From Clostridia bacterium (lineage in GTDB: Bacteria > Bacillota > Clostridia > Oscillospirales > CAG-272): a DNA stretch of 64,000 bases. Every line of letters starts with the position of its first letter. Within the stretch, counting starts at the first letter, position 1. Positions 45,017 to 62,713 of this stretch are shown here, in pieces. Under the pieces are notes generated by a model that was not told the origin of the DNA, searched no databases, and saw nothing but the letters and a program-made list of their open reading frames with translations. The stretch lies in NCBI GenBank assembly GCA_017508195.1, contig JAFVZL010000043.1:108856-172855 (forward strand), written 5' to 3'. Position numbers and translations under genes: made by a program.

Positions 45017-45022
45017 GTATAC

Positions 45023-46509: not shown

Positions 46510-46523
46510 AGGAGTAGACTAAA

Positions 46524-46964: not shown

Positions 46965-47000
46965 TATTTTCATTCTAAACTTAATAATCTTTACATATTA

Positions 47001-47037: not shown

Positions 47038-47053
47038 TTTTTTCGGAGGACCG

Positions 47054-49306
47054 ATGCATACAAGCGGATTTGACGGTGCGAGAAGAAAAACCGAGAGACG
47101 TGGCTATATTACTCTTGTTGCTTTTTTTCTTGTCTCTGTGCTTTTGGTGTTCAACATTTTGCGGCTCGATCTCTTTGCCTACGATAGCTATCGCGACAAG
47201 GCATACGATCAGATAACCACGACCTCAACTCTGAAAGCCGAGCGCGGAAGCATTTACGATTCAAGCATGAATTTGCTTGCCACGACAAAAACGGTGTGGC
47301 GAGTATTCGTATCTCCTAAGGCAATCAAAACCGCATCGAAGAAAGACGGTAAGGACTACGCTTCGCTCCTGTCGGGCGGATTATCTGAGATTTTTTCCTT
47401 AGATTATAATAAGCTGTATGAGAAGATGTCCGACTACACAGTGCTCGATCTGACCGTCGCGAAAGCGGCAAGCGAGGAGCAATATAAAAGGGTCGTTGAT
47501 TTCACCGCAAAAGCCTCCTTGGAAAGCCTTCTTTTTACAGAGGCACAGACCTCACGCTTTTACCCATCCGGCACTCTCGCAGCACACGTTCTCGGATTTA
47601 CCGGCAGCGATAATCAAGGCCTTTATGGACTCGAATATTCCTATAACTCCCTCCTTTCCGGCAAAGACGGTTATTACCTTTATGCAAAGGATGCAAACGG
47701 GAACCCGATGCCCGGCGGTTATACCGATATTGTCGAGGCTGTCGACGGAAGCTCTATTGTCACAACGATAGACTCGTACATACAGACGGTACTTGAGGGT
47801 GAGCTCAGCAGTATTGTCAAAAACCATTCTGTCACGGGGCGCGCAACGGGAATCGTAATGGATACCAAAACCGGAGCTGTGTTGGCAATGGCGACCTCAT
47901 CACCCTTTGACCCGAATTCTCCATACGAGCTCGACGCTCTATCTCTCGAGAGACTCTGTTCATCGGGATATGCCGAGGGCAGCGACGAGTACAAGGCACT
48001 CAAATCCGAGCTCATGCAGATAATGTGGTCAAACAAGGCGGTCAGTGAAACCTACGAGCCGGGCTCTACCTTTAAAATTGTGACGGTGGCGGCAGCGCTC
48101 GACTCCGGCTCTGCGAAGATGACCGATACCTTCTCATGCACCGGCAGCCACACAGTTGGCGGATATAATATCAGATGTCATAAACGAACGGGCCACGGCT
48201 CGGGATTTTCTCTCGCATACGGGCTTCAGATGTCCTGCAACCCGACTATGATGGCGATAGCCGAGAGAACCGGAGCCGATACCTTTTATTCATACGTTGA
48301 AAAATTCGGATATCTCGAGCGCACTGGCATAGATCTGCCGAGCGAGGCGAGAAGTATTTTCCACAATCCCGATGCCATAGGGGTGACGGAGCTTGCCACA
48401 GCATCCTTCGGGCAGCGCTTTAAGGTGAGCATTATTAACCAGCTTACAGCAATAGCAGCAGTCGCGAACGGAGGTTATCTGGTAACCCCATATCTTGTCG
48501 AAAGAGTGATCGACGAAAATGGCAACACAATTAAAGAACACGAAACCAAGATAAAAAGAAGGGTGATCAGCGAGGAGGTTGCAGCCGAAATAGCCAAGGC
48601 TCTCGAGGAGGGAGTAAGCGGAGACGGTGGCGCAAAGAACGCTTACGTCGAGGGGTACAGTGTGGCCGCAAAGACGGGTACATCGCAAAAGTTCGATATC
48701 CTTGACGAGAATGGAAACTCCTACCTGCGTATAGGCTCTACGGTCGCTTTCGCACCTTCTGATGAATCGGGAATTGCGGCAATTATTGTCGTAGACGAGC
48801 CGCAAAGCTCTGTAAAGTACGGCTCTACCGTTGCGGCACCGTATATCTCAAACCTTTTCTCTGCAATTCTTCCCTACCTTGAGTACGAGCGCACCTCTGC
48901 CGACCCTACTTACACCGTTGGCAGCTACGTAGGAATGAATATCAACTCCGCAAAGGATGCTCTCGAGAATGACGGTGTCGGCTATACGGTTATCGGTGAC
49001 GGAAGCGTTGTTATCTCTCAGCTGCCCGCCGCAAGCATTGATATAACGAAAAGCCTCTCAAAGGTATATCTTTATACCGTTACACCGGAGCGTGATACGG
49101 TTGCCGTGCCGAATCTCGTTGGGCTCGGTATAGCAGAGGCAAACCGAATTCTGGCGAACGAGGGTCTTAATGTAAAAATATCGGGTGTCACCGATCTGAA
49201 AAGTAATATACTAAAGGTAGTCAGACAATCAGTACCCGAGGGATATACAGTAAAGCGCGGCAGCGTAATCGAATTAACGGTACTGTGTACCGATCACGAG
49301 GATTGA
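47054..49306 (+). CDS. Class B penicillin-binding protein (FtsI/PBP2B/SpoVD family) with two C-terminal PASTA domains
   Basis: 750 aa. N-terminal TM helix, then transpeptidase motifs STFK, SCN and KTGTS. Two PASTA-like repeats in the last ~130 aa. Confidence 0.92.
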   Translation: MHTSGFDGARRKTERRGYITLVAFFLVSVLLVFNILRLDLFAYDSYRDKAYDQITTTSTLKAERGSIYDSSMNLLATTKTVWRVFVSPKAIKTASKKDGKDYASLLSGGLSEIFSLDYNKLYEKMSDYTVLDLTVAKAASEEQYKRVVDFTAKASLESLLFTEAQTSRFYPSGTLAAHVLGFTGSDNQGLYGLEYSYNSLLSGKDGYYLYAKDANGNPMPGGYTDIVEAVDGSSIVTTIDSYIQTVLEGELSSIVKNHSVTGRATGIVMDTKTGAVLAMATSSPFDPNSPYELDALSLERLCSSGYAEGSDEYKALKSELMQIMWSNKAVSETYEPGSTFKIVTVAAALDSGSAKMTDTFSCTGSHTVGGYNIRCHKRTGHGSGFSLAYGLQMSCNPTMMAIAERTGADTFYSYVEKFGYLERTGIDLPSEARSIFHNPDAIGVTELATASFGQRFKVSIINQLTAIAAVANGGYLVTPYLVERVIDENGNTIKEHETKIKRRVISEEVAAEIAKALEEGVSGDGGAKNAYVEGYSVAAKTGTSQKFDILDENGNSYLRIGSTVAFAPSDESGIAAIIVVDEPQSSVKYGSTVAAPYISNLFSAILPYLEYERTSADPTYTVGSYVGMNINSAKDALENDGVGYTVIGDGSVVISQLPAASIDITKSLSKVYLYTVTPERDTVAVPNLVGLGIAEANRILANEGLNVKISGVTDLKSNILKVVRQSVPEGYTVKRGSVIELTVLCTDHED

Positions 49307-49307
49307 T

Positions 49308-50777
49308 ATGAAGCTTAGCGAACTTTTGGGCGCGCTTGGAATAAGAAGCGCAGACAGAATACACGAGGGTTGCGAGGATCTGACTCCGACCTCAACCCTT
49401 GATAAATGCACACACGAGAGTCTTTTATTCGTAATCAAAAGGCTTAGCGGTGAATATACCGCTGAGGCAAAAAAAATAAACAAGCGTATGCCTTATGCCG
49501 TGATATGCGACGTTGACTATCCCACCGACCGCCTACGGGTTCCATACATAATAGTCGATGACGTAAGAACGGCACTTGCCTACGCATGTTCTCTGCACTA
49601 CGGTATCGACTATGCGGGTATGAAGATAATCGGTATCACCGGCACTAACGGAAAAACCACCACGGCTACGCTGCTACACGGTATACTTACCGCGTGCGGA
49701 ATCAAGGCGGGACAGATCGGAACGGGCATCATCCGTTCCGGGGAGGTCGAGCTCGCCGACAATGCCACAACGATGACGACTCCCGATCCTGAAAGGCTCT
49801 ATCGCATATTAGGAGATATGCAAAAGGACGGGTGCACTCACGTGGTAATGGAGGTATCGAGTCACGCGATCGCCCTTGGTAAGGTTGCACCGATAACCTT
49901 TGATCTTGGTATATTTACAAACCTTAGCCATGAGCATATGGATTTCCATAAGACTCCTGAGGACTACTACATGACCAAAAGGCGACTATTTGAAAGTTGT
50001 CGTGTCGCAATATTCAATATTGATGACGGTTACGGTGAGCGAGCATATTCCGAGATGTCCGGTAAAAAGCTCTCGGTCGGCATAGTAAATCAGGGCGATA
50101 TCTACGCAACCGACATCGTATTTGAAGGCGTTCGGGGCTCGGAGTTCTTCTACCGCAGAGGAAGTCTGATATTCAAAGCAAAGCTGAGGCTGCCAGGCTC
50201 ATTCAATATTTATAATGCTCTCTTAGCTATGAGCGCGGCAATAGAGCTAGGAATGAAGCCTAAGGACGTAAAGCACGCACTCTTTTCTATCAAGGGGGTC
50301 GAGGGTCGGATGGAGCTTATACATTCAGAGCCTTCTGTGGTGATAGACTATGCACATACTCCTTACGCGGTCGAAAGTGCACTGAGGGCGCTACGCGCCA
50401 CGGTGGGCGGAGGGCGGTTGATAGCGGTTCTCGGCTCGGGCGGTAATCGTGACAGATCAAAAAGGCCGCTTATGGCAAATGCCGCCTCACGCTATGCGGA
50501 TATAACCGTTCTCACCGAGGACAACAGCCGAGGCGAGATGACCGAGGCTATTATCGATGATATGAAGGTGGGACTTTTGGAAGGACGCGAGCATATAGAG
50601 ATACCAAGACGTGAGGATGCTATACGTCACGCGCTCTCTATCGCAAATGAATCCGATACCGTTGCGATCATCGGCAAAGGCCACGAAAGATACATTATAG
50701 ATGGGAAAGGTTACCGCAGCTTTGACGAGCGGGAGATAGTTAAGAGCTTTTTTGAGGGGATAAGTAATGAGAATTAG
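49308..50777 (+). CDS. murE: UDP-N-acetylmuramoyl-L-alanyl-D-glutamate--2,6-diaminopimelate ligase
   Basis: 489 aa. GITGTNGKTT P-loop. The substrate-selectivity position reads DNSR (canonical mDAP type is DNPR). Confidence 0.9.
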   Translation: MKLSELLGALGIRSADRIHEGCEDLTPTSTLDKCTHESLLFVIKRLSGEYTAEAKKINKRMPYAVICDVDYPTDRLRVPYIIVDDVRTALAYACSLHYGIDYAGMKIIGITGTNGKTTTATLLHGILTACGIKAGQIGTGIIRSGEVELADNATTMTTPDPERLYRILGDMQKDGCTHVVMEVSSHAIALGKVAPITFDLGIFTNLSHEHMDFHKTPEDYYMTKRRLFESCRVAIFNIDDGYGERAYSEMSGKKLSVGIVNQGDIYATDIVFEGVRGSEFFYRRGSLIFKAKLRLPGSFNIYNALLAMSAAIELGMKPKDVKHALFSIKGVEGRMELIHSEPSVVIDYAHTPYAVESALRALRATVGGGRLIAVLGSGGNRDRSKRPLMANAASRYADITVLTEDNSRGEMTEAIIDDMKVGLLEGREHIEIPRREDAIRHALSIANESDTVAIIGKGHERYIIDGKGYRSFDEREIVKSFFEGISNEN

Positions 50778-52146
50778 GCTGGGCTCTCCATTATCTCTGT
50801 GCGAAGTAACGGAAATTTTTCAGATTCCCGCCCCCACCCGCGATGCAGAATTCCAATATATAACAACCGACTCGAGAGAGGCTATGTCGGGCGACCTCTT
50901 CGTTTCTCTCTCGGAGATTCCGATAGACTCGCTTAAGCACACCGCAGAGGCTCGCGAAAGAGGCGCCGTGACACTCGGAGCGTTCGGAGATCTGCGCGTC
51001 AAGGATACCTCATCGATGCTCCTCAGGTTAGCGAACTACTATAAAAGAACAAGACTTACGGCATTAAACCATACCGTAGCAATAACCGGAAGTGTCGGTA
51101 AGACAACAACAAAGGAGTTTGCGAAAAGTATCCTTGGGGGATTCTATAAAGTCCATGCAAGTCCCGGGAACTATAACAACAGAATAGGTCTCCCTCTCGC
51201 AATTCTGACAGCCAAGCCGGACACGGAGATACTGCTGCTCGAGTGCGGAATGAACGCAGTCGGTGAGATTTCCGAGCTTTCAAACTGTATAGAACCGGAC
51301 ATAGCAGTCATTACGAATATCGGTACCTCTCATATAGGAAATCTCGGCTCACGCGAGGCAATCGCTAAAGCAAAGCTCGAAATACTCGACGGTATGAGTA
51401 GCGGAGTGCTTATCCGCCCACTGTCCGAGCCTCTTCTTGAATCCAACAAAAAAGCCGTAACGTTTTCGGTCGAGGATGAGGGTACTACGGACGATGCCGA
51501 TTATACCGCCACAAATATACAAACAAGCGATAGCGGAATTGAGTTCGTGCTCCACGTTTCGAAATACGAAGAGGCAAAAATCAGCTTCCCTCTTACAGCT
51601 CGGCATCTCATTCCTGATCTTCTGGCTGCGGTTGCAGCAGTGAGAGAGATAGGTATGCCACTAAAGGTTATCTCAGAAGCTATTACAGACTTAGGCGAAT
51701 CTCTGGTAAGACACCGCTTTATTGATATGGGCAGATTCACACTGCTCGACGATTCCTACAATTCATCACTGGAATCGGCAAGGAGTGCTATCGACCTGTT
51801 ACTCTCGCGCCCTGCGACAAGGCACACTGCGGTCTTTGGAGATATTCTCGAGCTCGGTACTCACTCAAAAGAGATACACCGAGCACTCGGTAGATATGCT
51901 GCGGGGGGCGTAGACAGAATAATTGCATACGGAGAGTTTGCGTCTTACATAAAAGAAGGTGCTCTCGCACGCGGAATGAGCGACGGGCAGATATTGGTAA
52001 TCGGGCGCGACTCGGGTATTGAGTATATCCGAGAGATATTAAATAAAACTATAATTGAAGGAGAGCTTATTCTCATAAAAGGCTCAAACAGAACGGGGCT
52101 GTGGAAGCTCTCGCTAGCGTTAAGGGGGGAAATAAATGACGGGTAG
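50767..52146 (+). CDS. murF: UDP-N-acetylmuramoyl-tripeptide--D-alanyl-D-alanine ligase
   Basis: 459 aa. ITGSVGKTTTKE P-loop and DSYNSS. It overlaps the murE end and the mraY start. Confidence 0.92.
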   Translation: MRIRLGSPLSLCEVTEIFQIPAPTRDAEFQYITTDSREAMSGDLFVSLSEIPIDSLKHTAEARERGAVTLGAFGDLRVKDTSSMLLRLANYYKRTRLTALNHTVAITGSVGKTTTKEFAKSILGGFYKVHASPGNYNNRIGLPLAILTAKPDTEILLLECGMNAVGEISELSNCIEPDIAVITNIGTSHIGNLGSREAIAKAKLEILDGMSSGVLIRPLSEPLLESNKKAVTFSVEDEGTTDDADYTATNIQTSDSGIEFVLHVSKYEEAKISFPLTARHLIPDLLAAVAAVREIGMPLKVISEAITDLGESLVRHRFIDMGRFTLLDDSYNSSLESARSAIDLLLSRPATRHTAVFGDILELGTHSKEIHRALGRYAAGGVDRIIAYGEFASYIKEGALARGMSDGQILVIGRDSGIEYIREILNKTIIEGELILIKGSNRTGLWKLSLALRGEINDG

Positions 52147-53122
52147 CGGTATATTCTTTTTTGTTTTTATATTTGCACTGTCATTAGGAGTGACTGCGCT
52201 TGTCGAGCGCACCATAATACCTATACTGAAAGAGCGTGCGGAGCAGCCCATATACACGGATGGACCTAAGTGGCACGCATCGAAAAGCGGTACACCTACG
52301 CTGGGCGGACTTGCCTTTATTATTGCTTTGCTTTCCGTAGTCCCCCTGGGGGCGGTATGGTTGGCGGATACATTATCCTCGGATGCGGCAGTGTCGCTGG
52401 TGCTTACCGCATCTTACGCGCTTTTAAATTCGCTTATCGGTATCATTGACGATCTGACAAAGCTGAAAAAGAAGAAAAACGGGGGACTTACCCCGTTTCA
52501 GAAGCTTGCTATGCAGTCAGTGCTTGCAATTCTTCTTTTATACTTGCGCGCAACACTTCTGGGTGACGAGCCAACACTCGCGTTCAGCTTCGGTACGGTT
52601 AATATCGGGATATGGTACTATCCCCTTTCATTCCTTATGCTCCTCGGTGTTACGAATTGTGCCAACCTCACCGACGGTGTCGACGGTCTTGCAAGCTCTG
52701 TCGCTTTCGCTATCGGTACGGTACTGTTCTTTATCTCCTCAAAAAGCATAGGAGAGATATCGGTAATCAGCGCATTGCTTATAGGTATTTCTGTAGGATT
52801 TCTAATTTTTAATATTCATCCGGCGAAAATATTCATGGGTGATACAGGCTCGCTTCTTCTAGGGGCACTCGTCGGTGGTACGGGTTTAATGCTCGGCAAT
52901 CCTATTCTTATACTGCTTATCGGCGGCGTTTACGCGATAGAGGGTGCATCGGTCATTCTCCAGGTCATTTCCTATAAGCTTACGGGAAAGCGCATATTCA
53001 AAATGGCACCCTTGCACCATCATCTCGAGCAATCGGGCTTTTCAGAGAATAAAATATGCATGCTCGCTATCATCGCGACTATTATCCTCGGAATTCCAAC
53101 CTTTTTACTTTATATATCATGA
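52136..53122 (+). CDS. mraY: Phospho-N-acetylmuramoyl-pentapeptide transferase
   Basis: 328 aa, polytopic. NLTDGVDGLA, MGDTGSL, APLHHH. Confidence 0.95.
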   Translation: MTGSGIFFFVFIFALSLGVTALVERTIIPILKERAEQPIYTDGPKWHASKSGTPTLGGLAFIIALLSVVPLGAVWLADTLSSDAAVSLVLTASYALLNSLIGIIDDLTKLKKKKNGGLTPFQKLAMQSVLAILLLYLRATLLGDEPTLAFSFGTVNIGIWYYPLSFLMLLGVTNCANLTDGVDGLASSVAFAIGTVLFFISSKSIGEISVISALLIGISVGFLIFNIHPAKIFMGDTGSLLLGALVGGTGLMLGNPILILLIGGVYAIEGASVILQVISYKLTGKRIFKMAPLHHHLEQSGFSENKICMLAIIATIILGIPTFLLYIS

Positions 53123-54330
53123 GAAGCACGAAAGAAAAATATAATAATACCCGCGTGGGTGTGGACGGTAGTGAGCGCTCCAAGGGTAAAGGCATCCTCG
53201 GGGGGATATTCCGCGATGGCGGCGGTCATATTGACAAGGTCCTGCTCGTAACGACTCTCCTATTAGCCGTCTTCGGTACGCTTACGGTATTTTCTGCGGG
53301 CGGCCCGTACGCCGAAGCAAAGTACGGTGACGAGTATTACTTCATCAAGCGACAGGTCATATGGCTAATTCTCGGGGCTTTGGCAATGGTTCTTGGGTCA
53401 AAGCTTGCGCCCGAGTTCTATAAAAAAATGGCAATTCCCGTTTACTGCCTATCTATCGTACTGCTTATTCTTACGCTCGTAATCGGATTTACGGGTAACG
53501 GAGCGCAGAGATGGATATCGATAGGACCCTTGACCGTGCAGCCCTCCGAGATAGCGAAGTTCGGTACCGTTATGATGCTCGCTTACTACTTTGACAAAAA
53601 CAAGATGCGGGCAACGGAGCCGAAAAGCCGCGGTGAGTCATTTCTCTATGGCACCCTCATCCCTCTTGGTATTATGCTTTTACCGATAGTGCTCGTTATG
53701 CTTCAAAGGCATCTATCCTGCATAGTTATTATGGGCGTTATCGGTATACTGCTGATAGTACTTGCGGGTATAGACGTTAGGTATATACTCGGTTTTATCG
53801 GTGCGGGGGCTGCCGGCGTAAGCGCGCTCGCACTGTTTACCGATTACACAAAGGACAGAATCACCGTATGGCTCGACCCCGAAAAGTATAAGCTTACGGG
53901 TGGATGGCAGACACTAGAGGGGCTCATGGCAATAGGCTCGGGCGGCATCCTCGGTAAGGGCTTCGGACGGGGAGAATTAAAATACTGCTACGTTTCCGAG
54001 CCTGCGAACGATATGATCTACGCCATTCTGTGCGAGGAGCTCGGCTTTGTCGGGGGTCTTGCGGTCATAATACTGTTCGCTATATTTGCGCTGAGGTGCT
54101 TCCGCATAGCATTTAAAACCGAAGATACATATCAGAGACTGCTCTGCCTCGGAATATGTGCTCAAATTACAGTTCAAGCACTATTGAACATCGCGGTTGT
54201 AACAAATACGGTACCAAATACGGGCATTTCACTCCCGTTTTTCAGCTACGGCGGCTCCTCGCTCATCATGCTGCTGTTTGAGGTCGGTATCCTGCTGTCG
54301 GTGTCACGCGATGCAAGAATAGTCGGATAG
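53119..54330 (+). CDS. ftsW: SEDS-family peptidoglycan polymerase FtsW/SpoVE
   Basis: ATG at 53119 overlaps the mraY stop (ATGA). About 10 TM helices, with motifs QPSE(I/F)AK and SLPFFSYGGSS. Confidence 0.9.
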   Translation: MRSTKEKYNNTRVGVDGSERSKGKGILGGIFRDGGGHIDKVLLVTTLLLAVFGTLTVFSAGGPYAEAKYGDEYYFIKRQVIWLILGALAMVLGSKLAPEFYKKMAIPVYCLSIVLLILTLVIGFTGNGAQRWISIGPLTVQPSEIAKFGTVMMLAYYFDKNKMRATEPKSRGESFLYGTLIPLGIMLLPIVLVMLQRHLSCIVIMGVIGILLIVLAGIDVRYILGFIGAGAAGVSALALFTDYTKDRITVWLDPEKYKLTGGWQTLEGLMAIGSGGILGKGFGRGELKYCYVSEPANDMIYAILCEELGFVGGLAVIILFAIFALRCFRIAFKTEDTYQRLLCLGICAQITVQALLNIAVVTNTVPNTGISLPFFSYGGSSLIMLLFEVGILLSVSRDARIVG

Positions 54331-54337
54331 GAGTTTT

Positions 54338-55426
54338 ATGAAGGTAATGTTTTCGGGCGGCGGGACTGCCGGTCATATCTACCCCGCACTCGCTATGGCC
54401 GAGATGATAAAGAGAAAATATACCGATGCGGAATTTGTTTTTGTCGGCAGACTCGGCGGTGATGAAAACGAGGCTGTAAGGCGTGCCGGATACCCGGTAC
54501 ATCTGCTCGATACTGTGGGTATCCGCCGTTCGCTCAGCATATCGAACATAAAGGCAATATTCAAGGCACTCAGAGCCGAGCATGAAGCCGGATGTCTTAT
54601 CAAAGAGCATTCGCCCGATATCGTCATAGGTACCGGTGGATACGTCAGCTGGCCTGTCCTGCGTGCCGGCATAAAGCACAAGCTCCCGACGCTCATCCAC
54701 GAATCGAACGCGTACCCCGGGCTTGTGACGCGCATGCTGGCAAAGCACGTAAGTGCGGTCATGCTCGGCTTTGACTCCGCCCGCACCCATCTGCCGGGAG
54801 GAAGTAATGCCGTAACAGTCGGCAATCCCGTCCGCGACGGATTCGGCAGCATAAAAAAGAGAGAAGCAAGAAAAAGGCTCGGTATAAAAGACAGCGAGAC
54901 TCTCATTCTCTCTTTCGGCGGCAGCCTAGGCTCCGAGAGGATGAACTCCGTTATACTCGAGCTTATATCAAAGGGCGCGTGCGGTGCTACCGTTGTACAT
55001 GCAACGGGAAAGAGATACTTTGAGGCAATCAAACGCACGCATCCAGAGCTTGTGAGAGATCGCGGCTCGAGGATAATGCCATATATCTCCGATATGCCGC
55101 TTTGGCTATCGGCGGCTGACCTCGCGATAACGAGAAGCGGTGCGATAACATTAGCCGAGCTATGCGAGGCAGGAATTCCGTCCATACTCATCCCATCTCC
55201 GAACGTCAGCGACGATCATCAATATAAAAACGCTCTCGCCATGTCGGAGATGGGCGCATCCTTGGTGATAAAGGAGTCCGAGCTCGGAGAAGAAAGACTG
55301 CGATCCGAGATAGAAAGACTGCTAAAGGACAAGACGGCTCTTATTCATATGGGAAAGCTCGCTCATAAGGGTACACGCGCCCTTACGGAAAAAAGGATAC
55401 TCGAAGTTATAGGTAATTGTTTATAA
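54338..55426 (+). CDS. murG: Undecaprenyldiphospho-muramoylpentapeptide beta-N-acetylglucosaminyltransferase
   Basis: 362 aa. GGGTAGHIYPALA N-terminus and RSGAITLAEL C-domain. Confidence 0.95.
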   Translation: MKVMFSGGGTAGHIYPALAMAEMIKRKYTDAEFVFVGRLGGDENEAVRRAGYPVHLLDTVGIRRSLSISNIKAIFKALRAEHEAGCLIKEHSPDIVIGTGGYVSWPVLRAGIKHKLPTLIHESNAYPGLVTRMLAKHVSAVMLGFDSARTHLPGGSNAVTVGNPVRDGFGSIKKREARKRLGIKDSETLILSFGGSLGSERMNSVILELISKGACGATVVHATGKRYFEAIKRTHPELVRDRGSRIMPYISDMPLWLSAADLAITRSGAITLAELCEAGIPSILIPSPNVSDDHQYKNALAMSEMGASLVIKESELGEERLRSEIERLLKDKTALIHMGKLAHKGTRALTEKRILEVIGNCL

Positions 55427-55501
55427 ACGTCTTTCTGCCCTAAAATATTATGCGTAATATTTTATAAATTGTAAATATTTTATGCGCGCACGAGAAAACT
55501 C

Positions 55502-55529
55502 TTGTTTTTGTTAAAAAATATAGTATAAT
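55502..55529 (+). promoter_or_regulatory. Possible ftsZ-proximal sigma-A promoter
   Basis: TTGTTT, a 16-nt spacer, then TATAAT (55524-55529), in the AT-rich murG-ftsZ spacer. Confidence 0.4.
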
Positions 55530-55587
55530 TATTATAGTATTTTAAAATAAGCGAGAAGGCTCGCGTTATATAAAACGGAGGTTTCGG

Positions 55588-56832
55588 ATGGACAGCAAAA
55601 TGGAATTTGATTTTGAACAGGTTTATGACAGTGGCGTTAATATTAAGGTCATCGGTGTCGGCGGCGGCGGAAACAATGCCGTTAACCGCATGATTTCGGC
55701 AAATATAAGAGGCGTTGAATTCATCGCCGTAAATACAGATGCTCAGGTACTCGATACCTCTTGCGCATCGAAAAAGCTCATCCTCGGCGACAAGGTTACA
55801 AGAGGTCTCGGTGCAGGTGCTAACCCCGAGGTCGGCAGACGTGCTGCCGAGGAGTCCATCGACGAGATCAGAGCCGTGCTCCAGGGTGCCGATATGCTCT
55901 TCGTTACCGCAGGTATGGGCGGCGGAACAGGTACGGGTGCAGCTCCCGTTATCGCAAGAGTTGCAAAGGAAATGGATATCCTTACCGTAGGTATCGTTAC
56001 CAAGCCCTTCAACTTCGAGGGAAAGAAGAGATACATACAGGCGGAGGCAGGTATTGCCGAGCTTGCTAAGTTCGTTGACTCTCTTATCGTCATCCCCAAC
56101 GAGAGACTTAAGCAGGTAGAGGACACCAAAATCACTCTTGCGAACGCATTTGAAATTGCCGATGACGTTCTTCGCCGCGGTGTGCAGTCGGTATCCGAGA
56201 TCATCAACGTTACGGGCTTCGTTAACCGTGACTTTGCAGACGTTACCACCATCATGAAGAATGCAGGCTATGCTCACATGGGCGTTGGCTCTGCCAAGGG
56301 TGCAGACAAGGCGCAGCTCGCAGCAATGGCGGCTATCTCCTCTCCCCTTCTCGAGACCAGCATCGCAGGTGCGACGGGCGTTCTTATGAGCATCACAGCA
56401 TCTGAGGATATTACCCTTGAGGACGTAGAGATCGCATCTACAATGGTATACGAGGAAGCTCATCCCGATGCAACCATCATCTGGGGTGCTGCATTCAACC
56501 CCGAGCTCCAGGACGAGATAAGAATCACGATTATCGCAACCGGCTTCATCGACAGCGTTACCAACGAGAACGGTGTTTCCAACAAGACAGTTGAAAGCGA
56601 GAAGGCCGAAAGAATTGCAAATGCAGCGGTCGAGGCAAGCGGTGAGTACGTTGCCGAGCCCGTATCCGCCCCCGTGGTCGAGGATATCAAGCCCGAGCCC
56701 GCAGTTGCTCCCTCGCCCGTAACCGTTACCGTACAGACCGCTCCCGCTCAGGCAAAGGAAGAGGAGGATCTCACTGACGAGTATGAGGAGATCTTCACCT
56801 TCATCACCAAGAAGGCAAAGCCCTCTAACTAA
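55588..56832 (+). CDS. ftsZ: Cell division protein FtsZ
   Basis: 414 aa. [13 protein letters not shown] and tubulin signature [12 protein letters not shown] disordered linker and a short conserved C-terminal peptide follow. Confidence 0.97.
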
Positions 56833-56880
56833 GAAGAAGCATCCGTCTTTGCGGATGCTCCACCAAACAATATGATATCT

Positions 56881-56913
56881 GCGAGTGCCCCTTACGGCGG
56901 CACTCGCTTTTTT
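56881..56913 (+). terminator. ftsZ intrinsic terminator
   Basis: GCGAGTGCC...GGCACTCGC 9-bp stem followed by T6. An additional hairpin AGCATCCG/CGGATGCT sits at 56838-56859 without a T-tail. Confidence 0.85.
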
Positions 56914-56972
56914 GTGCGAGGGTGCATGATCTTGCCGGATTGTAACTAGCACGGCAGAAGATAAAGCCACAA

Positions 56973-56996
56973 GAAAAATGCCGGAAGAACTCCGGC
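56973..56996 (-). terminator. Minus-strand terminator-like hairpin at the outer edge of the left A-tract array
   Basis: Minus strand: GCCGGA-gttct-TCCGGC followed by ATTTTTCTT. It would stop leftward transcription before ftsZ. Confidence 0.5.
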
Positions 56997-57000
56997 TATG

Positions 57001-57345
57001 AAAAGTGAAAAAACATGCTAAAACCGAAGTCGAAGAGCTTGTCGAAACAGAAGCAAAAAGGCAAGTGGGAAAACAGGTGAAAACCGAGCAAAAAGTATTC
57101 TCGAAAAGAGGCGCGAAATGCTGTAGAAAAACGGATAAAAAAAGAGGGAAAAAGACCGCAAAAAAACAGCGGAAAAAACGCGTTAAAATTTTGCTCATAT
57201 CAAAGAAAAAAATAAGAGAAAAAACGATAAAAAACGCCTTTGAAAAATCGCGAATAATCCTTCGTTTTCCGTCTGTCCCAGCCGCCCTAAAAAAACGGTC
57301 GGTGACCGTAAAAAATTATGTCGTGAGGCGGTTACAAAAAAACGG
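57001..57345 (+). repeat. Left array of ~12-bp phased A-tract units (about 20 runs of A4-A7)
   Basis: Units such as GTGAAAAAAC, GGTGAAAACC, GTAGAAAAAC, ACCGCAAAAAAAC, AGCGGAAAAAAC, GATAAAAAAC. A-run starts are spaced mostly 10-14 bp apart. The grammar is 3-6 G/C-rich nt, then A4-7, then C or G. Confidence 0.8.
57289..57315 (-). terminator. Terminator-like hairpin at the inner edge of the left array (minus-strand sense)
   Basis: A7-ACGGTC-ggt-GACCGT-A6 on the plus strand, which reads as a stem followed by a U-run on the minus strand. Confidence 0.4.
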
Positions 57346-57359
57346 TGTCACTGAATAGA

Positions 57360-57760
57360 GAGAGCTGATATCGGGCTGACACCGACTGAGCGATTTCGAC
57401 TGTTAGGAAACGGAATGGATATCGGCTCGAACGAAAACCAAGGCGAGAGATAAGAATTCTCAACAGGCTGCCCTGACCGCTTTAATTACCATAGCGAGAG
57501 GCTACCGCCCTCCATAATGAAGGGAGAGAAACAGGGGCTACCAAGCTCGAGCGAGAAGCTAGGAGGGAAAATCTGCTACCTATATCTTATCAGGGGAGGT
57601 GCGCAAAGAGATCGTCTCCGACCGTCTCCGTAAGAGTAATTTTTAACTGTTGTGACGGTGAGTGCTGTAAGCCGTCGAGCGTTTATCCGATATCATGAAT
57701 AGTGTCAGAGCAATGGCCGGTTAGGCTGATAATTCTCCTTTAGCAAGAGATGGAGTTTAA
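57360..57760. ncRNA. Candidate structured RNA core of the ftsZ-downstream island (family unknown, strand unknown)
   Basis: GC-normal and ORF-free. 11-bp stem 57361-57371/57417-57427. GATATCGG appears twice, with a distal complement CCGATATC at 57686-57693. CCCTCC (57507) is complementary to GGAGGG (57561), and GACGG (57653) to CCGTC (57671). Threefold GCGAGAR and GCTACC direct repeats. No Rfam family recognised by eye. Confidence 0.25.
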
Positions 57761-57761
57761 C

Positions 57762-57776
57762 ACATTTTCCGAAAAT
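57762..57776. promoter_or_regulatory. CodY-box-like palindrome
   Basis: CATTTTCCGAAAATA versus consensus AATTTTCWGAAAATT (12/15 match). Confidence 0.25.
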
Positions 57777-57790
57777 ACACAAAAACGAAT

Positions 57791-57848
57791 TACATTTTTC
57801 CGTTCCCCATTTTTGGGGTGCAAAATTCCGTTCTACACAATTCCGTTC
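57791..57848 (+). repeat. Three direct 15-mer iterons TRCAnWWTTCCGTTC
   Basis: TACATTTTTCCGTTC (57791-57805), TGCAAAATTCCGTTC (57819-57833) and TACACAATTCCGTTC (57834-57848). The last two abut each other. Confidence 0.8.
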
Positions 57849-57924
57849 TGACATTTTAACCCTAAAACCGCTTTTTGAGCTCAAAAAATAGTGTCATACA
57901 CCCCGAAATAACGGAATTGTGTAG
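57833..57924. repeat. 15-bp perfect inverted iteron pair enclosing a concentric 16-bp perfect palindrome
   Basis: CTACACAATTCCGTT (57833-57847) pairs with AACGGAATTGTGTAG (57910-57924). TTTTTGAGCTCAAAAA (57872-57887) is centred within 1 bp of the midpoint of that pair. Confidence 0.85.
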
Positions 57925-58537
57925 TTTTTAAGTAAAAGTTTTCAACATCGATTTTGTGTTTTTTCAAATTACCAACAACAACCAACACGCTCTTTTCCGT
58001 AAAACGAAAAAGTGTATTTTTGATTTTTCGGGCTTTTTACACACCTGGAAACGGATGCTCCGAAATTGTATATCAGCCCATATCGGGCTCGGTTTCTCGC
58101 TCCAAAAAAGAACGTGAAAAACTTATTCAGAGTACAATATCGAGTACCCCTTCTCTCTTCCCAATAGCTTTCAATCAGGAGTCATACCCAAGCGAACGAC
58201 AGGCGGAAGCGTCATCACCGTTCAGTATCAAAATGCCATGATCAAAAAATTCTCCGAGCAGTTTTCCAAAAGAAAAATTGAACTCCGCATTAACCGCTCG
58301 ATATGCGAAAGCGCCCCCGGAAGATGGCTTTTAGTTTCAACAACGCGCCTCGACCTCAGCGTTGAGGTACGTCAGCACTTCCCTGCTCTAAGAATATACT
58401 CACGGAAGCAGCAAAGCATCAAGCCCTTCTCATAACTTCAAAGCTGCTTTCAACAAAAGCAAAGCAAGCTGAAAATAGCTCTTGAATACAGCGCATATCA
58501 AAAGACTATTTTCATCTTTCTTTTTACTCGCATCAAA

Positions 58538-58560
58538 GCGCGGTATCACCCGCGTTTTTT
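58538..58560 (+). terminator. Plus-strand terminator-like hairpin at the inner edge of the right array
   Basis: CGCGG-tatcac-CCGCG followed by a T-run that begins the T-tract array. Confidence 0.4.
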
Positions 58561-58750
58561 AACCTGTTTTCGGGGCGTAATTCTCAGTGCTTTTTCATCC
58601 CGTTTTCGCCGCCTGTTTTTTGCTGCTTTTTTCGTCCGTTTTTTAAGTGGATTTTTTACTGATTTTCGAGCGCGTTTTTTTCTCGTTTTTTTAACTCTTA
58701 CCAGCCCTGTTTTTCAGCGCTCCTTCCCCTCTTTTGCGGGTGCTGTTTTC
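58554..58750 (+). repeat. Right array of ~12-bp phased T-tract units (14 runs of T4-T7), the inverted counterpart of the left array
   Basis: Units CGCGTTTTTT, CCTGTTTT, GTGCTTTTT, CCCGTTTT, GCCTGTTTTTT, GCTGCTTTTTT, GTCCGTTTTTT, GTGGATTTTTT, GCGCGTTTTTTT, CTCGTTTTTTT and others. T-run starts are spaced 11-13 bp (or multiples). The reverse complement follows the same grammar as 57001-57345. Confidence 0.8.
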
Positions 58751-58874
58751 AAGCTGAAAAAGCTATGATGAAAAGACCTTTTGCGATTACCCTTTAATTC
58801 ATCGGAACATGTTACTTATACAAGCCCATAATTTCCATATACCGTAATGTCAAGATCAAAGCATCAGCTGCACC

Positions 58875-59094
58875 CACGCGCGTGCGTCCATGCGAGCGCA
58901 CGAGAATACCCTTCATGTGCTTCTTAAGAAAAAAGCAGGCAAAACTACTCCGCTTAATGCCGTTACGTGCACTGAGAGGCAAAATTTCGCTCTCTGTGCG
59001 CATTTAAGCGCTATTCTCGCACTCACGCTCATTTTTTATCGCTATATCGCAAATAAAGCGAATTTTCGGGCACGTGCGCACATGCATACGCGTG
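58875..59094. repeat. Cluster of alternating purine-pyrimidine tracts and short GC-rich palindromes
   Basis: CACGCGCGTG palindrome within a 13-nt alternating Pu/Py run (58875-58887). A 25-nt perfect alternating run GCACGTGCGCACATGCATACGCGTG (59070-59094) contains the palindromes GCACGTGC, GTGCGCAC, ATGCAT and ACGCGT. More ACGCGCG / TGCGCA / ACACGCGCA tracts extend to ~59130. Confidence 0.8.
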
Positions 59095-59145
59095 AGCAAC
59101 GCGCGAAACTGCGCAAACACGCGCAATATTTCCGTTTGATTGACG

Positions 59146-59205
59146 CAAAACAAAAAGCACCCGGCCCACTCACCGTGGCGTATACCACAGAGCCGAGTGC
59201 TTTTT
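59146..59205 (-). terminator. Terminator of the recD2 / mreB-like / microprotein operon
   Basis: Minus strand: GCACUCGGC...GCCGGGUGC, a 9-bp stem with one G-U pair that is a C-A mismatch on the plus strand. It is followed by TTTTTGTTTT, directly after the 39-aa ORF stop. Confidence 0.65.
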
Positions 59206-59221
59206 ATAATTGTTTTTCCGA

Positions 59222-59341
59222 TCAACCGATTATGTAGAACAGAACGGTCGCAATCGAGCCGAACAGAAGAAGTGCTGCGAGCGAGCCCGCAAGAATCTTT
59301 GCGGTCATAGAGACCGTCTTCTTTTCTCCGTTGTTTTTCAT
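59222..59341 (-). CDS. 39-aa membrane microprotein (not in the supplied ORF track)
   Basis: My own translation: MKNNGEKKTVSMTAKILAGSLAALLLFGSIATVLFYIIG. A GAGGAG RBS lies 7 nt upstream and overlaps the mreB-like stop codon. It has a single TM helix. Confidence 0.6.
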   Translation of the reverse strand: MKNNGEKKTVSMTAKILAGSLAALLLFGSIATVLFYIIG

Positions 59342-59352: not shown

Positions 59353-60399
59353 TCAATGTTTTTTACTGTTTTCGTAATACTTTGCGATATCCTTAGTAAT
59401 ATTCTTCCCTGCCACCTTAGCGCGGTCGGGTAAGAACGCGTTTATCCTCGAAAGACCCTTGGCAACGCAATCGGCAGCCCCGTCGGGCTTTGTTACCGAG
59501 ATACCGAGGACCTTAGAGATAAGCATCTCGATACCGAAGAGCTCGGCACCGCCGCCCGTAAGAACTATTCCGTTATCGAATATGTCCTCTACGGCATCGG
59601 TGGGAATCTGCTTCACCGCCTCTGCGATCTCAAATATAAGCTTCTGTAACGGTGCCTCAAAGACACCTACTATATCTTCTGTGGTTACGTTTATCTTCAG
59701 CTTGTTACCTGTCAGCGACAGAGTTCCCTCAATATCGAGGCTATCGTTCGGCTTGCCCTTCCAGACCGCACCGAGCTTCTCCTTTATCGCCCTTGCAACT
59801 ATCAGTGAGATATTTACCTCACCCTGATCGAATATATACTGCTTTACTGCACGGTCGAAGTCCTCACCGCCTATTTTGGCACGTTTCAAGGTGAGTATGC
59901 TTCCCTTATGCAGAATTGCTATCTCGGTAGCAAGTGCACCGATATTGACCGATATAACGCTCATCGCAGGAGAATATCCCGCACCGATAAGCGCTGCCAT
60001 AGGACGAGCCACACAGGTGGCGGTATCAACGCCCGACTCGACGAGCATCTGACAGAGCTCCTTTTCCTGCTTCGGGGTGAAGTCAGACGGAACACCTACA
60101 ACACAGCGTATCTTCTCGGCATCGCCAACCGCGCGCATCGCGCTCGCGATAACCTCTCTCGTTATCTGATGGTCGAAGAGGAGCCCGTTCTTAAAGGGTC
60201 TGACAAGCATGCCCTCCGAGATGTCCTCGCCCTCCTTACCGTACATAAGAGCATCGGCACCAACGGCAATTATACGGCGCTGATCGGGTCGCGGCTGCTT
60301 ATAGACGAGCGCAACGGATGGCTCTCGGTATATCTCAGCAATACAGTCGCTGATGGTGATATTGGCGTAACCAAGGTCGAGACCTATCTTCGTTACCAT
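59353..60399 (-). CDS. Divergent MreB-family actin-like protein
   Basis: ATG at 60399 follows an AAAGGAG RBS. IGLDLGYANITI (phosphate-1), EPSVALV, RPFKNGLLFDHQITREVI, VNIGALATEIAIL, GIVLTGGGAELFG. It aligns by eye with MreB/Mbl motifs but is clearly divergent. Confidence 0.8.
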   Translation of the reverse strand: MVTKIGLDLGYANITISDCIAEIYREPSVALVYKQPRPDQRRIIAVGADALMYGKEGEDISEGMLVRPFKNGLLFDHQITREVIASAMRAVGDAEKIRCVVGVPSDFTPKQEKELCQMLVESGVDTATCVARPMAALIGAGYSPAMSVISVNIGALATEIAILHKGSILTLKRAKIGGEDFDRAVKQYIFDQGEVNISLIVARAIKEKLGAVWKGKPNDSLDIEGTLSLTGNKLKINVTTEDIVGVFEAPLQKLIFEIAEAVKQIPTDAVEDIFDNGIVLTGGGAELFGIEMLISKVLGISVTKPDGAADCVAKGLSRINAFLPDRAKVAGKNITKDIAKYYENSKKH

Positions 60400-60490
60400 G
60401 CCGTACTCCTTTCTGTCGTTTATGCCCGGATGAAAATAATTATAATACAAAGCGCGTGAAAATTCAAGTGCTTTTCAAATATTTAAGCTT

Positions 60491-62713
60491 TTATCTGTCT
60501 TTGTCGAATTCCGCCCTGAGGCGCGACTTAAGAGTGGTGTACCTCTCCACCTCGCGATTATTGGATATCATCTTATAGGGGATATCGCTTCTGCCGACAA
60601 GAATGACCATCCTCTTCGCACGCGTCACCGCAGTATAGAATAAGTTCCTCGTCTGAAGCATGGGCGGACAGTAATACATCGGTATGATAACAACGGGATA
60701 TTCGCTGCCCTGACTCTTATGAACGGTGATGGCATAGGCTAGCTCGAGCTCGTCGAGCTTCTCAAATTCATACTTTACAAGTCTGTCGTCAAACCTGATC
60801 TGCATAAATTTATCTGCCGTATTTATCATTTCTATCGTTCCGATATCACCGTTAAAGATGCCGATGCCCTCGATCCCGCACTTCTCCCATTCGATCTCAT
60901 AATCGTTCACTACCTGCATCACGCGGTCTCCCTCGCGGAAGACTGTAGAGTGTGCGGTGTGCTCTTTTTTAAGCTTTGCCGGTGGATTTATCCTCGCCTG
61001 AAGCTCTCGGTTAAGGACGTCTACACCGCCGTATCCGCGCCTCGAGGGAGTGATTATCTGTATCTCGTCGCGTATGGATTTTCCGTACGCCTTAGGCAAT
61101 CTTTCGGTAATAAGGCTTGCGACCGTATCGGCTATCGTGCGCTCGTCCTCTCTGCGAACAAAGAAGAAATCGCGGTCTACGGAACCGAGCACCGGGGGCT
61201 TGCCCTGATTTATCAGATGTGCATTCGTAATGATAAGGCTCTCCTCGGACTGTCTGAACACCTCGGTAAGCCTTACCGTAGGTATCGTACCCGAGGATAT
61301 GAGATCAGCAAGGATATTACCCGCACCGACACTCGGCAGCTGATCAAAGTCACCGATAAGAACGAGTCTCGCGCCTCTTGGCATCGCATAAAGCAGCGCG
61401 TGCATAAGTGTAAGGTCTATCATCGATGCCTCATCGACGATGACGACCTCTTCATCGAGCGGAAATCTCGCATTGCGGTTAAAGCGCGTTGTGTTAGCCT
61501 CCGTGCGCTCCATCTCGAGAAGTCGGTGAATGGTCTTCGCCTCCTCGCCCGTCGTCTCGCTGAGCCTCTTTGCCGCTCTGCCCGTAGGTGCCGCAAGCAC
61601 CGTATCTATGCCCGTATCGTGGAATATGGATATAAGCGCCTTTACTATCGTGGTCTTTCCCGTACCCGGGCCGCCCGTTATGATGGTCACACCGCCCTCA
61701 AGGCTGCGGTATATCGCCTCTCGCTGAAGGCTGGCATAGGTCACGTTCATTCCGACCTCGACCTTACGCATGAGACTCATGATATCGTCTCTCGGCATTG
61801 TAACCGCCTCGCGGCTCATCTGATATAGCCGCTTCGCAACGAATGCCTCCTTATAGCCTACATCGGCGGTCATTATGTACTCAGATTCTCCCTCTCGGTA
61901 TAACTCGAGCTCATCGGTAGTCAGGAAAAGCTCTATTGCCCGAGAGACGGTATCCTCACCGAGGTCAAGCAAATTCGACACAGCGCAGACAAGTTTCCCT
62001 CGAGGCAGACAGGTGTGTCCGTTAGCACCCGCGTTGTATTCGAGTATATATTCTATACCTGCGCGTATCCTCTGCTCTCCGTCCTTCGGATATCCGAGAG
62101 AGGCAGCTATCGCATCCGCTTTATCAAAGGGGATGCCCATCTCACCCTCGCACAGAACGTAAGGGTTATCTCTGACGATACCCACGGCAGATGCTCCGAG
62201 CTGCTTATAAACTCTGTTTATCTCACCCGTGCCGATGAAATCCTTGAAGAATATCATTACGTTGCGAAGCTCACTCTGACCGCGGAAGCTCTCGGAAATG
62301 GCTCTCGCCTTCTTTGCCGTAATACCGGGGATATCCGTCAGCCACTCGGGGTGGTTCTCGAGCACGTCAAAGGTATCAAGTCCGTACTTATTTGCGATCT
62401 TCAGTGCGGTCACGGGACCTACGCCCTTGACCGTTCTAGAGGAGAGGTACTGTATGATGCCATCAATCTCCTTAGGCAGAGATTTCTCATAGCTCGTAAA
62501 TGCAAACTGCGCTCCGAACTCACGGTGATAGGTCATACTGCCCGTAAGCTTTACTATCTCGCCCTCAGCGGGAGAGGCTATGATGCCTACCGCAGTAACG
62601 AGTCCTCCGTCATCGCCAAGCACCTCGAGGACGCTATAATCGTTCTCATCGTTTCTGAAAACGATATTTTCTATCTTACCCGATAACACCTTAACGGCTC
62701 TGTCGATATTCAA
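60491..62713 (-). CDS. recD2: ATP-dependent RecD2-type (RecD-like) DNA helicase
   Basis: 740 aa. N-terminal OB/HhH region, SF1B motifs (GGPGTGKTT, VIVDEASMID, LIGDFDQLPSVGAG) and a C-terminal SH3-like domain (ITVHKSQGSE). Confidence 0.92.
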   Translation of the reverse strand: MNIDRAVKVLSGKIENIVFRNDENDYSVLEVLGDDGGLVTAVGIIASPAEGEIVKLTGSMTYHREFGAQFAFTSYEKSLPKEIDGIIQYLSSRTVKGVGPVTALKIANKYGLDTFDVLENHPEWLTDIPGITAKKARAISESFRGQSELRNVMIFFKDFIGTGEINRVYKQLGASAVGIVRDNPYVLCEGEMGIPFDKADAIAASLGYPKDGEQRIRAGIEYILEYNAGANGHTCLPRGKLVCAVSNLLDLGEDTVSRAIELFLTTDELELYREGESEYIMTADVGYKEAFVAKRLYQMSREAVTMPRDDIMSLMRKVEVGMNVTYASLQREAIYRSLEGGVTIITGGPGTGKTTIVKALISIFHDTGIDTVLAAPTGRAAKRLSETTGEEAKTIHRLLEMERTEANTTRFNRNARFPLDEEVVIVDEASMIDLTLMHALLYAMPRGARLVLIGDFDQLPSVGAGNILADLISSGTIPTVRLTEVFRQSEESLIITNAHLINQGKPPVLGSVDRDFFFVRREDERTIADTVASLITERLPKAYGKSIRDEIQIITPSRRGYGGVDVLNRELQARINPPAKLKKEHTAHSTVFREGDRVMQVVNDYEIEWEKCGIEGIGIFNGDIGTIEMINTADKFMQIRFDDRLVKYEFEKLDELELAYAITVHKSQGSEYPVVIIPMYYCPPMLQTRNLFYTAVTRAKRMVILVGRSDIPYKMISNNREVERYTTLKSRLRAEFDKDR

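Follow-up and report, generated by a model that had tools for sequence, protein, structure and literature searches.

What occupies more than two kilobases without genes immediately 3' of ftsZ, in a stretch of chromosome where no other gap is longer than 403 bp? The question is raised by a 64,000-nucleotide segment of a Clostridia bacterium (assembly GCA_017508195.1, contig JAFVZL010000043.1, positions 108,856 to 172,855 of the forward strand), hereafter the window, in which all coordinates below are given. The gene-free interval measures 2,389 bp (56833-59221), from the stop of ftsZ (56832) to the stop of an open reading frame (ORF) encoding a 39-amino-acid (aa) membrane peptide, and is about six times the next largest gap when ORFs of at least 100 aa are counted. 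An earlier reading of the bare sequence (the original prediction) had singled it out as an unusually long gene-free island, which it is, at a length larger than stated; the limit of 250 bp or less given there for the spacers elsewhere was slightly too strict, although the island remains an outlier. Only some 240-270 bp of this island (57760-58028) are conserved, a duplex-DNA element which we tentatively read as a site where the initiator protein DnaA and a second, box-binding factor would assemble into a regulatory complex.

FtsZ-anchored loci from 80 species-level genomes were used as the comparison set. Within the island, only positions 57906-58038 have nucleotide similarity in these 80 loci, and a profile was built from the aligned region (57787-58028 in the window). 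This profile detects one copy per locus in 37 distinct sequences or contigs, which comprise about 26 of the 80 FtsZ-anchored loci, the three closest relatives (FtsZ 81-83% identical) and 9 metagenome contigs; the hosts are uncultured metagenome-assembled genomes labelled 'Eubacteriales', Clostridia or Ruminococcus, mostly from ruminant and human gut. Wherever flanks are available the element lies directly 3' of ftsZ, and it is syntenic across the 37 contigs, with FtsZ identity down to about 69%. It stays with ftsZ in four loci that have no MreB-like or RecD2 match to the right, the flanking genes converge on it in 24/24 relatives, and terminators are found on both of its sides in the three nearest relatives. 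Locus L009, and apparently L020, has the entire element turned round with respect to the flanking DNA and otherwise unchanged, and the element was therefore considered as an autonomous module. Three other assemblies with identical FtsZ (same species) are 100% identical, so that there is no within-species variation. A pattern scan of metagenomes returned 91 matches, only 9 of which are true elements, the others being chance matches, mostly within coding sequence and including one recurrent human-gut gene. When the island was compared by tblastx with all loci and with the rest of the window, matches were restricted to the element and the 39-aa ORF; those to the element occur in all frames, which argues for conservation at the DNA level. 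No description of the element was found in the literature.

The repeat of the element is an asymmetric box, (AAA)TACAYWWTTCCG(T)T, present in 4-5 copies, of which 2-3 face rightward and 2 leftward. On the plus strand of the window, a degenerate box 0 (ACACATTTTCCG, 57760..57771) is followed by box 1 (TACATTTTTCCG, 57791..57802), itself preceded by an A-run, and 43 bp after box 1 by box 2 (TACACAATTCCG, 57834..57845). On the minus strand are box 3 (57912..57923, reading CGGAATTGTGTA on the plus strand), which is the best-conserved block of the element, and, 93 bp after it, box 4 (58005..58016, reading CGAAAAAGTGTA on the plus strand), then TTTTTGATTTTT. At the position of box 0 two of the nearest relatives, L085 and L087, have a clear third box, and L084 a degenerate one. 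Of the five matches of the box pattern in the whole window, four fall in 57791-58016. The 15-mer iterons that had been described around a 16-bp palindrome (57791-57924) are all present: tandem 15-mers start at 57820 and 57835 (57820-57834 being a partial tandem copy ahead of box 2), a perfect 15-bp inverted pair occupies 57833-57847 and 57910-57924, and the palindrome TTTTTGAGCTCAAAAA lies at 57872-57887, inside the spacer between boxes 2 and 3. A CodY-box-like palindrome proposed for 57760-57779 was rejected, this segment being instead a degenerate copy of the box and, after it, the A-run that leads into box 1.

Start-to-start spacing of the boxes is 43, 78 and 93-94 bp in most loci. The spacer between the converging boxes 2 and 3 (57846..57911, 66 bp in the window) measures 65-67, 76-77 or 86-87 bp in 21 of 22 species and 70 bp in the remaining one, and the distance from box 3 to box 4 is 93-95, 113-117 or 126 bp. 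Spacings shift by steps of about 10 bp, that is by helical turns, and this points to proteins interacting on one face of duplex DNA. The sequence of the spacer between boxes 2 and 3 is free to vary across species, with phased A/T tracts retained. In one subclade TATAC replaces TACAC in most boxes, box 4 keeping TACAC in some members; this largely concerted change suggests a single protein co-evolving with its sites and, together with the sequence that the boxes share, is consistent with one dedicated protein that would bind them all. The possibility that the boxes encode a repeated peptide was discarded, since the 43-bp spacing is not a multiple of three and successive boxes lie in different frames.

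The second motif family consists of TTWTCMACA 9-mers, which lie between and around the boxes and number 81 in forward and 6 in reverse orientation in 12.5 kb of elements. At 6.5 per kb they exceed the 0.043 per kb per strand of a 1.4-Mb background about 150-fold; the variants are TTTTCAACA (32 occurrences), TTTTCCACA (31), TTATCAACA (11) and TTATCCACA (7). Relatives have 2-5 of these boxes within about 250 bp, co-oriented, several of them with a perfect TTATCCACA. The only exact match in the copy of the window is 9-mer a (TTTTCAACA, 57939..57947, plus strand); it is followed on the same strand by degenerate tandem boxes b and c (TTACCAACA and CAACCAACA, 57969..57987), at a place where relatives have TTATCCACA or TTATCAACA. 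The accepted DnaA-box consensus is TTWTNCACA, and a cluster is defined as at least three boxes that are less than 100 bp apart on average (PMC7561715); about half of the 9-mers depart from this consensus at position 6. Judged by its sequence, the element belongs with the intergenic DnaA-box clusters outside oriC, and the identity of the motif suggests that the 9-mers would be bound by DnaA.

Conservation, two oriented motif families, phasing, bends, terminators and a mid-replichore place together describe a nucleoprotein assembly site on duplex DNA. Of the hypotheses of the original prediction, that of a protein-loading or architectural site beside the division genes comes closest to the data and is supported for the ~270 bp of the element; it does not extend to the remaining ~2.1 kb, which are absent in the nearest relatives. 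The reading that we prefer, with a confidence somewhat short of an even chance, is that of a DnaA-handling or cell-cycle regulatory locus, the element serving as scaffold for a higher-order protein-DNA complex of DnaA and a box-binding factor. A sequence-specific protein would occupy the 4-5 boxes and, these being placed on fixed helical faces across bent spacers, the bound proteins would touch, loop or wrap the DNA, while the co-oriented 9-mers interleaved with the boxes would recruit DnaA. Occupancy of the complex would be coupled to local transcription, since a promoter-like site (see below) has its -35 over 9-mer a and its -10 over box 3. The role of the element would be regulatory and analogous to that of Bacillus subtilis DnaA-box clusters or of Escherichia coli datA/DARS, the box-binding factor and the A-tract bends standing in for IHF/Fis; the locus would be parked 3' of ftsZ, with terminators insulating it from both convergent operons.

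Several observations weigh against this reading. Position 6 is A, not the consensus C, in about half of the 9-mers, the copy of the window has one exact and two degenerate ones, and the 2-5 DnaA-like boxes per element are fewer than in B. subtilis clusters or oriC; DnaA binding may be weak here, or the 9-mers may serve another protein. No candidate gene for the box-binding factor is linked to the element, the number of copies per genome was looked at in neighbourhoods of 20-64 kb and in one metagenome pattern scan, and the promoter-like site could make the element mainly a regulated transcription unit.

In E. coli, datA and DARS1/DARS2 are loci that respectively inactivate and reactivate DnaA, by means of oriented DnaA boxes and a DNA-bending factor at fixed positions. 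The element is likewise a short non-coding locus with few oriented DnaA-like boxes and fixed putative accessory sites or bending; it differs in that its accessory sites are not those of IHF or Fis, its bending appears intrinsic (A-tracts) and it has no sequence homology to these loci. To our knowledge, Firmicutes lack IHF. The datA locus has five high-affinity DnaA boxes (PMC3245932), and in B. subtilis non-oriC intergenic DnaA-box clusters modulate initiation (Okumura et al. 2012, PMC3245932). With the latter the element shares the clustering of DnaA-box-type 9-mers in intergenic, non-coding chromosomal DNA away from oriC in a Firmicute, but its DnaA-like boxes are fewer (2-5), co-oriented, and interleaved with a second, unrelated family of phased boxes. 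Some of the B. subtilis clusters regulate a neighbouring promoter, e.g. sda, whereas the element has no neighbouring gene to regulate because it is located between convergent genes. On the reading preferred here, the element would be a known type of non-origin DnaA-box regulatory locus to which a new accessory box family is added. Loci other than oriC that assemble DnaA with accessory factors are, as far as we know, very few (datA, DARS and the Bacillus clusters), and we know of none described in Clostridia. The element is a precisely defined candidate, conserved, phased and beside ftsZ in an uncultured gut and rumen clade; the box motif of 12-17 bp, the 9-mer motif and the fixed spacings are reagents for probing the linkage between replication and division, and the boxes can be used as bait for identifying a new sequence-specific DNA-binding protein.

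A sequence resembling the boxes was also observed on an unrelated contig (OFHO01002261.1, locus L103, ~7228-7308). It is a near-perfect 22-bp palindrome with one central mismatch, ACGGAATAGTATACTTTTCCGT, made of two box-like half-sites placed head to head, and a second, degenerate copy lies nearby. Possibly an operator recognised by a related DNA-binding protein, this palindrome might give a lead to the identity of the box-binding family.

The place of the element on the chromosome was assessed from strand asymmetry, using third-codon-position skews, which separate the effects of transcription from those of replication. In the window, plus-strand genes (n=16) have a GC skew at third positions (GC3) of about -0.12 and an AT skew (AT3) of about 0, and minus-strand genes (n=36) a GC3 skew of about -0.03 (about -0.01 when an ORF antisense to ftsZ, described below as spurious, is left out) and an AT3 skew of about -0.2; the dcw genes, which end with ftsZ, skew like the other plus-strand genes, and the three genes right of the island like the other minus-strand genes. 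In 24 relatives (loci L001-L029, L084 and L085), GC3 and AT3 skews are -0.149 and +0.012 for plus-strand genes left of the element (n=189), -0.205 and -0.082 for plus-strand genes right of it (n=19), and -0.017 and -0.178 for minus-strand genes right of it (n=126); the replication component has the same sign on either side. Left of the element the oligomer CTTCCCTG has counts of 11:0 (plus:minus), right of it 27:0, and overall 38:0; the corresponding counts of the 7-mer CTTCCCT are 65:4 on the left and 49:2 on the right. The KOPS consensus and the B. subtilis SRS, taken as their complements, are also one-stranded on both flanks. Since neither skews nor polar oligomers switch, the minus strand was considered as leading throughout, the fork crossing the island from right to left, and the element is mid-replichore. 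The whole 12-kb dcw-ftsZ operon (44601-56832) is head-on to replication in the genome of the window and in the 24 relatives, an orientation that is unusual for essential division genes. A side observation is the complete strand polarity, whatever the orientation of the genes, of G-rich CAGGGAAG (read as CTTCCCTG on the plus strand) in the window and the 24 related loci, which makes this oligomer a candidate FtsK/SpoIIIE-orienting (KOPS/SRS-like) or Chi-like sequence of the clade.

A bolder form of the DnaA reading is a cell-cycle coupling site, at which a complex of DnaA and a dedicated box protein would stand where the fork enters the head-on dcw-ftsZ operon; we consider it quite improbable. 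If true, this complex would detect or gate the passing of forks or the state of the initiator, and pass this on to division by way of the internal promoter or of the handling of replisome-transcription conflicts; it would be a chromosomal checkpoint device with no described counterpart.

Among the rival explanations, a site of chromosome organisation or of replisome handling (centromere-like, condensin-loading, or a programmed pause or loading of accessory factors where the leftward fork passes from co-directional genes into the head-on dcw-ftsZ operon) is judged unlikely. In its favour, centromeres and fork barriers offer a parallel for opposed asymmetric boxes on bent, transcription-insulated DNA, every copy of the element lies at the 3' boundary of ftsZ, the operon that it borders is head-on by both oligomers and skews, and the 12-bp-phased arrays that flank the element in the window (described below) recall iteron centromeres. 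This explanation, however, leaves no role for the DnaA-like 9-mers; no gene for a ParB/ParR/TubR-like or terminator protein is found beside the element among the called genes of the window strain and its three nearest relatives; the 12-bp arrays are missing from these nearest relatives; a two-way fork barrier would be harmful mid-replichore; and in L009, apparently also in L020, the element is inverted as a whole without other change. A type II/III centromere (parC, tubC) has arrays of 11-12 bp iterons beside a gene for an actin-like or tubulin-like motor and one for an adaptor (ParR/TubR); here, the 12-bp arrays occur only in the window and L009, no adaptor gene was seen among the annotated neighbours, the FtsZ is that of the dcw cluster, and the element persists where no MreB-like match adjoins it. 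In the fork traps RTP-Ter of B. subtilis (IRI/IRII) and Tus-Ter of E. coli, as in the element, asymmetric sites form two opposed groups, confined to a short piece of non-coding DNA with convergent genes on either side, but the element is not at the terminus as judged by skews and oligomers, no terminator-protein gene was seen next to it, and its DnaA-like boxes would be left unexplained.

A low probability is also given to the element being a tightly regulated transcription unit, in which a leftward sigma-A promoter would be controlled by a looping box-binding repressor and modulated by DnaA to produce a short non-coding RNA (ncRNA). This rival rests on a sigma-A-like promoter found by scanning, TTGAAA-18-CACAAT, on the minus strand at 57916..57945 and facing left. 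DnaA-like box a, read as its complement, provides the -35 (TTGAAA or TTGATA), and the -10 (CACAAT, TACAAT or TATACT) falls within box 3, at 16-18 bp from the -35; in 17 of 33 homologous elements a promoter-like site scores at this same place, with up to 10/12 matches to the consensus (TTGAAA-16-TATACT), and the match of the -10 is improved by an A at box position 7 that no box but box 3 carries. Minus-strand terminators lie left of the promoter, where the predicted leftward transcript would stop, after ~600 nt in the window (~57907 to 57295) and 200-300 nt in relatives, and the ftsZ-side terminators of relatives are bidirectional. Yet conservation in the putative transcript stops at the boxes: neither sequence beyond them nor any ORF is conserved, covariation is lacking, and the length and content of the RNA would differ among close relatives. 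Helical-turn spacing and the presence of boxes on either side of the promoter are constraints at the DNA level; they fit a repressor loop, but no product worth regulating is visible. Since such a transcript is without conserved sequence or ORF besides the boxes, the promoter is better considered as part of the regulatory logic of the proposed DnaA complex than as that of an RNA gene. Inverted boxes flanking a promoter-like site also recall an inverton; no recombinase gene was seen nearby, the three same-species assemblies are identical, and in L009, apparently L020, it is the whole element that is flipped, rather than the inter-repeat segment.

That the element is an origin of replication, whether an oriC that has been relocated or is auxiliary, or an iteron origin left by a replicon integrated long ago, with the boxes as iterons, the DnaA boxes recruiting DnaA and the spacer as unwinding element, is very improbable, even though iteron-like repeats, DnaA-box-like 9-mers and an A/T-tract spacer are the classic grammar of theta origins. 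Iteron theta origins (pSC101, P1, RK2, Vibrio oriCII) and ORB-flanked archaeal origins combine asymmetric boxes of 12-20 bp, helical phasing and DnaA boxes. The element has in common with them phased, repeated asymmetric boxes accompanied by DnaA boxes, and inverted boxes flanking a spacer; unlike them, it has no adjoining initiator gene, no fixed AT-rich unwinding element and no asymmetry switch, and it is conserved in chromosomal synteny, not on mobile DNA. The GC3 skew of plus-strand genes is -0.15 to -0.2 on both sides, with no switch, and that of minus-strand genes about -0.02, with an AT3 skew of -0.18 (right side in relatives, both sides in the window); the one-stranded distribution of CTTCCCTG and of KOPS- and SRS-like octamers on both flanks, and the convergence of the flanking genes in all 24 relatives, also stand against an origin. 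A DnaA-trio array is found in only 1/37 elements, the lowest-GC 30-mer is at no fixed place, and the spacer between boxes 2 and 3 has ~40-50% GC (estimated by eye). Since asymmetry switch, DnaA-trio and fixed unwinding element are all lacking, the element was considered to be neither oriC, nor terminus, nor dif; no match to the dif/Xer consensus, a site of 28-31 bp with two Xer arms around a spacer of 6-8 bp, is present anywhere in the window.

Searches for genes and sequences of replicons were likewise negative. Linkage of oriC to dnaA/dnaN is typical of Firmicutes, and a tblastn search with a B. subtilis DnaA query did not find dnaA within 10 kb in the window and the 80 loci. No rep or initiator gene was seen adjoining the element, the flanks being the core genes MurG, FtsZ, MreB-like, RecD2 and MetK. 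No match was obtained when the island and the element were searched by blastn in phage and plasmid sequences, or when viral contigs were scanned with exact and gapped patterns. In the hypothesis that the island derives from a decayed iteron replicon, the architecture of iterons with DnaA-like boxes is right, but descent from a replicon or phage is unsupported, given the synteny in 37 contigs, the lack of phage, plasmid or viral matches and a strand asymmetry that does not switch.

The first hypothesis put forward for the island, that it encodes large structured ncRNAs (one or several) between insulating terminators, is suggested by a large, terminator-bounded gene-free region with many local inverted repeats, and is extremely improbable: no Rfam family was matched on the whole window at gathering thresholds and only noise on the island at relaxed E-values, no tRNA or tmRNA was found, folding of the so-called core (57360-57760) is no better than that of shuffled sequences on either strand (z +0.9 and +0.27, single-sequence), relatives whose FtsZ is 81-83% identical share no more than ~270 bp of the island, and what is conserved has constraints of the DNA type and broken 'stems'. 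In the RNAalifold consensus fold of 10 homologues over 260 nt (energy -13 kcal/mol, covariation term -0.98 kcal/mol), base pairs form between the inverted boxes only; the 'stem' of boxes 2 and 3 carries a T.T mismatch at one position in 15/22 species. The paired boxes thus show no selection for a hairpin, and the element is accordingly a site of protein assembly on duplex DNA, not an ncRNA. That the original prediction could match the island to no RNA family or prophage end agrees with the Rfam, blastn and viral pattern searches.

For the remainder of the island, ~950 bp left and ~1,190 bp right of the element, neither the relatives, phages and plasmids nor the other parts of the window contain a homologue. 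In the closest relatives, the gaps are only 494-784 bp long and consist of the ftsZ terminator, the element and the terminator of the minus-strand operon, from which the remaining ~2.1 kb were considered as lineage-specific. No relative has a gene colinear with the interval, so that a pseudogenised remnant of protein genes, an outcome that the original prediction had named as one that would refute it, does not apply here. No ORF of the island has credible support from Pfam or PHROG scans, in agreement with the recognisable protein signatures said to be lacking. This filler is non-coding, is without further copies in the window and shows no similarity to mobile DNA. Most of what had been described as a mirror-symmetric island is therefore lineage-specific padding, which tempers any reading drawn from its size and symmetry.

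Within the filler, the left array consists of phased A-tracts with a period of ~11.75 bp (57001..57345, plus strand; predicted to be curved) and the right array of phased T-tracts with a period of 12.0 bp (58554..58750, plus strand), inverted with respect to the left one, a relation to which inverted repeat pairs I1-I6 tie it. Spectral power is 6.8 for the left array (0.59 +/- 0.24 in shuffles) and 5.1 for the right (0.65 +/- 0.27), i.e. 5-7 against 0.6 +/- 0.25 for a periodicity of 11.75-12 bp, or about ten times. Both are lineage-specific and missing from the nearest relatives. Across 1.4 Mb of related DNA, the threshold is reached by no arrays other than these two and one of L009, which also adjoins the element. 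In L009, two T-tract arrays phased at ~12 bp (11251-11551 and 11880-12210) flank the inverted element and are direct to each other, so mirror symmetry is not a conserved property, although the inverted A/T-tract arrays of the original prediction are real and beyond chance. Two lineages having the element flanked in this way, and none such arrays elsewhere in 1.4 Mb, suggests that the arrays are linked to the function of the element or to the local mutational environment. Possible roles are curved DNA, insulation through transcribed U-tracts, or low-affinity T4-6...CCG/CG sites resembling the box core; arrays and outward terminators are probably a curved, transcription-insulating padding.

Terminator-like hairpins had been noted at three module boundaries, and all three are present and outward-facing, the first two on the minus strand and the third on the plus strand. 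The terminator scan lists GCCGGAGTTCTTCCGGC ATTTTTC (56980..56996, minus strand), which would halt leftward transcription before ftsZ, and ACGGTCACCGACCGT TTTTTTAG (57295..57309, minus strand), outward from the central element; the third, GCGCGGTATCACCCGCG TTTTTT (58538..58566, plus strand, rightward), was read from the sequence and is not listed by the scan. The segment 57360..57759, which had been described as a core dense in complementarity, is a spacer of normal GC, lineage-specific, without homologue or excess structure, its folding equalling that of shuffled sequences as given above. The block of alternating purine-pyrimidine palindromes announced for 58875-59130 shrinks to two alternating runs, of 13 nt (58875-58887) and 25 nt (59070..59094).

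On its left the gap is bordered by ftsZ (55588-56832, plus strand), the final gene of a dcw cluster that also contains mraW, a PBP, two Mur ligases, mraY, ftsW and murG. A first hairpin 3' of ftsZ (56836-56861) precedes the intrinsic terminator of the gene (56884..56908, plus strand), a GAGTGCC...GGCACTC hairpin with a T-run identified from the sequence and by the terminator scan. On its right are four minus-strand genes, namely the conserved single-pass membrane ORF of 39 aa (MKNNGEKKTVSMTAKILAGSLAALLLFGSIATVLFYIIG, 59222-59341), a divergent MreB-like actin-fold protein gene (59353-60450), the RecD2 gene (60491-62713) and the MetK gene. The operon of the 39-aa ORF, MreB-like and RecD2 genes is closed by a bidirectional terminator (59148..59204), a symmetrical hairpin between an A-run and a T-run, and these genes and those of dcw-ftsZ converge on the gap.

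Minor observations were made on these neighbours. The FtsZ of the window is a genuine dcw-cluster gene; in 54338-56832, murG is followed directly by ftsZ after a 161-bp gap, with no ftsQ/divIB or ftsA ORF between them, unlike the usual dcw arrangement. An ORF of 572 aa antisense to ftsZ (55480-57198, minus strand) extends into the island and is almost certainly spurious, its GC3 skew of -0.51 and AT3 skew of -0.50 being unlike those of real genes of the window. The MreB-like protein scores 170 bits against the NCBIfam MreB model (cut-off 293), with weak similarity to MamK and FtsA, and its gene is syntenic with those of the 39-aa membrane peptide and RecD2 in most related loci. Finally, in six distant loci that lack the element (L033, L035, L036, L039, L042 and L056), A-tracts phased at ~10.25-10.5 bp are found ~200 bp upstream of ftsZ (locus positions ~9776-10026, or 1526-1776 in L033), and are probably curved promoter-upstream DNA.

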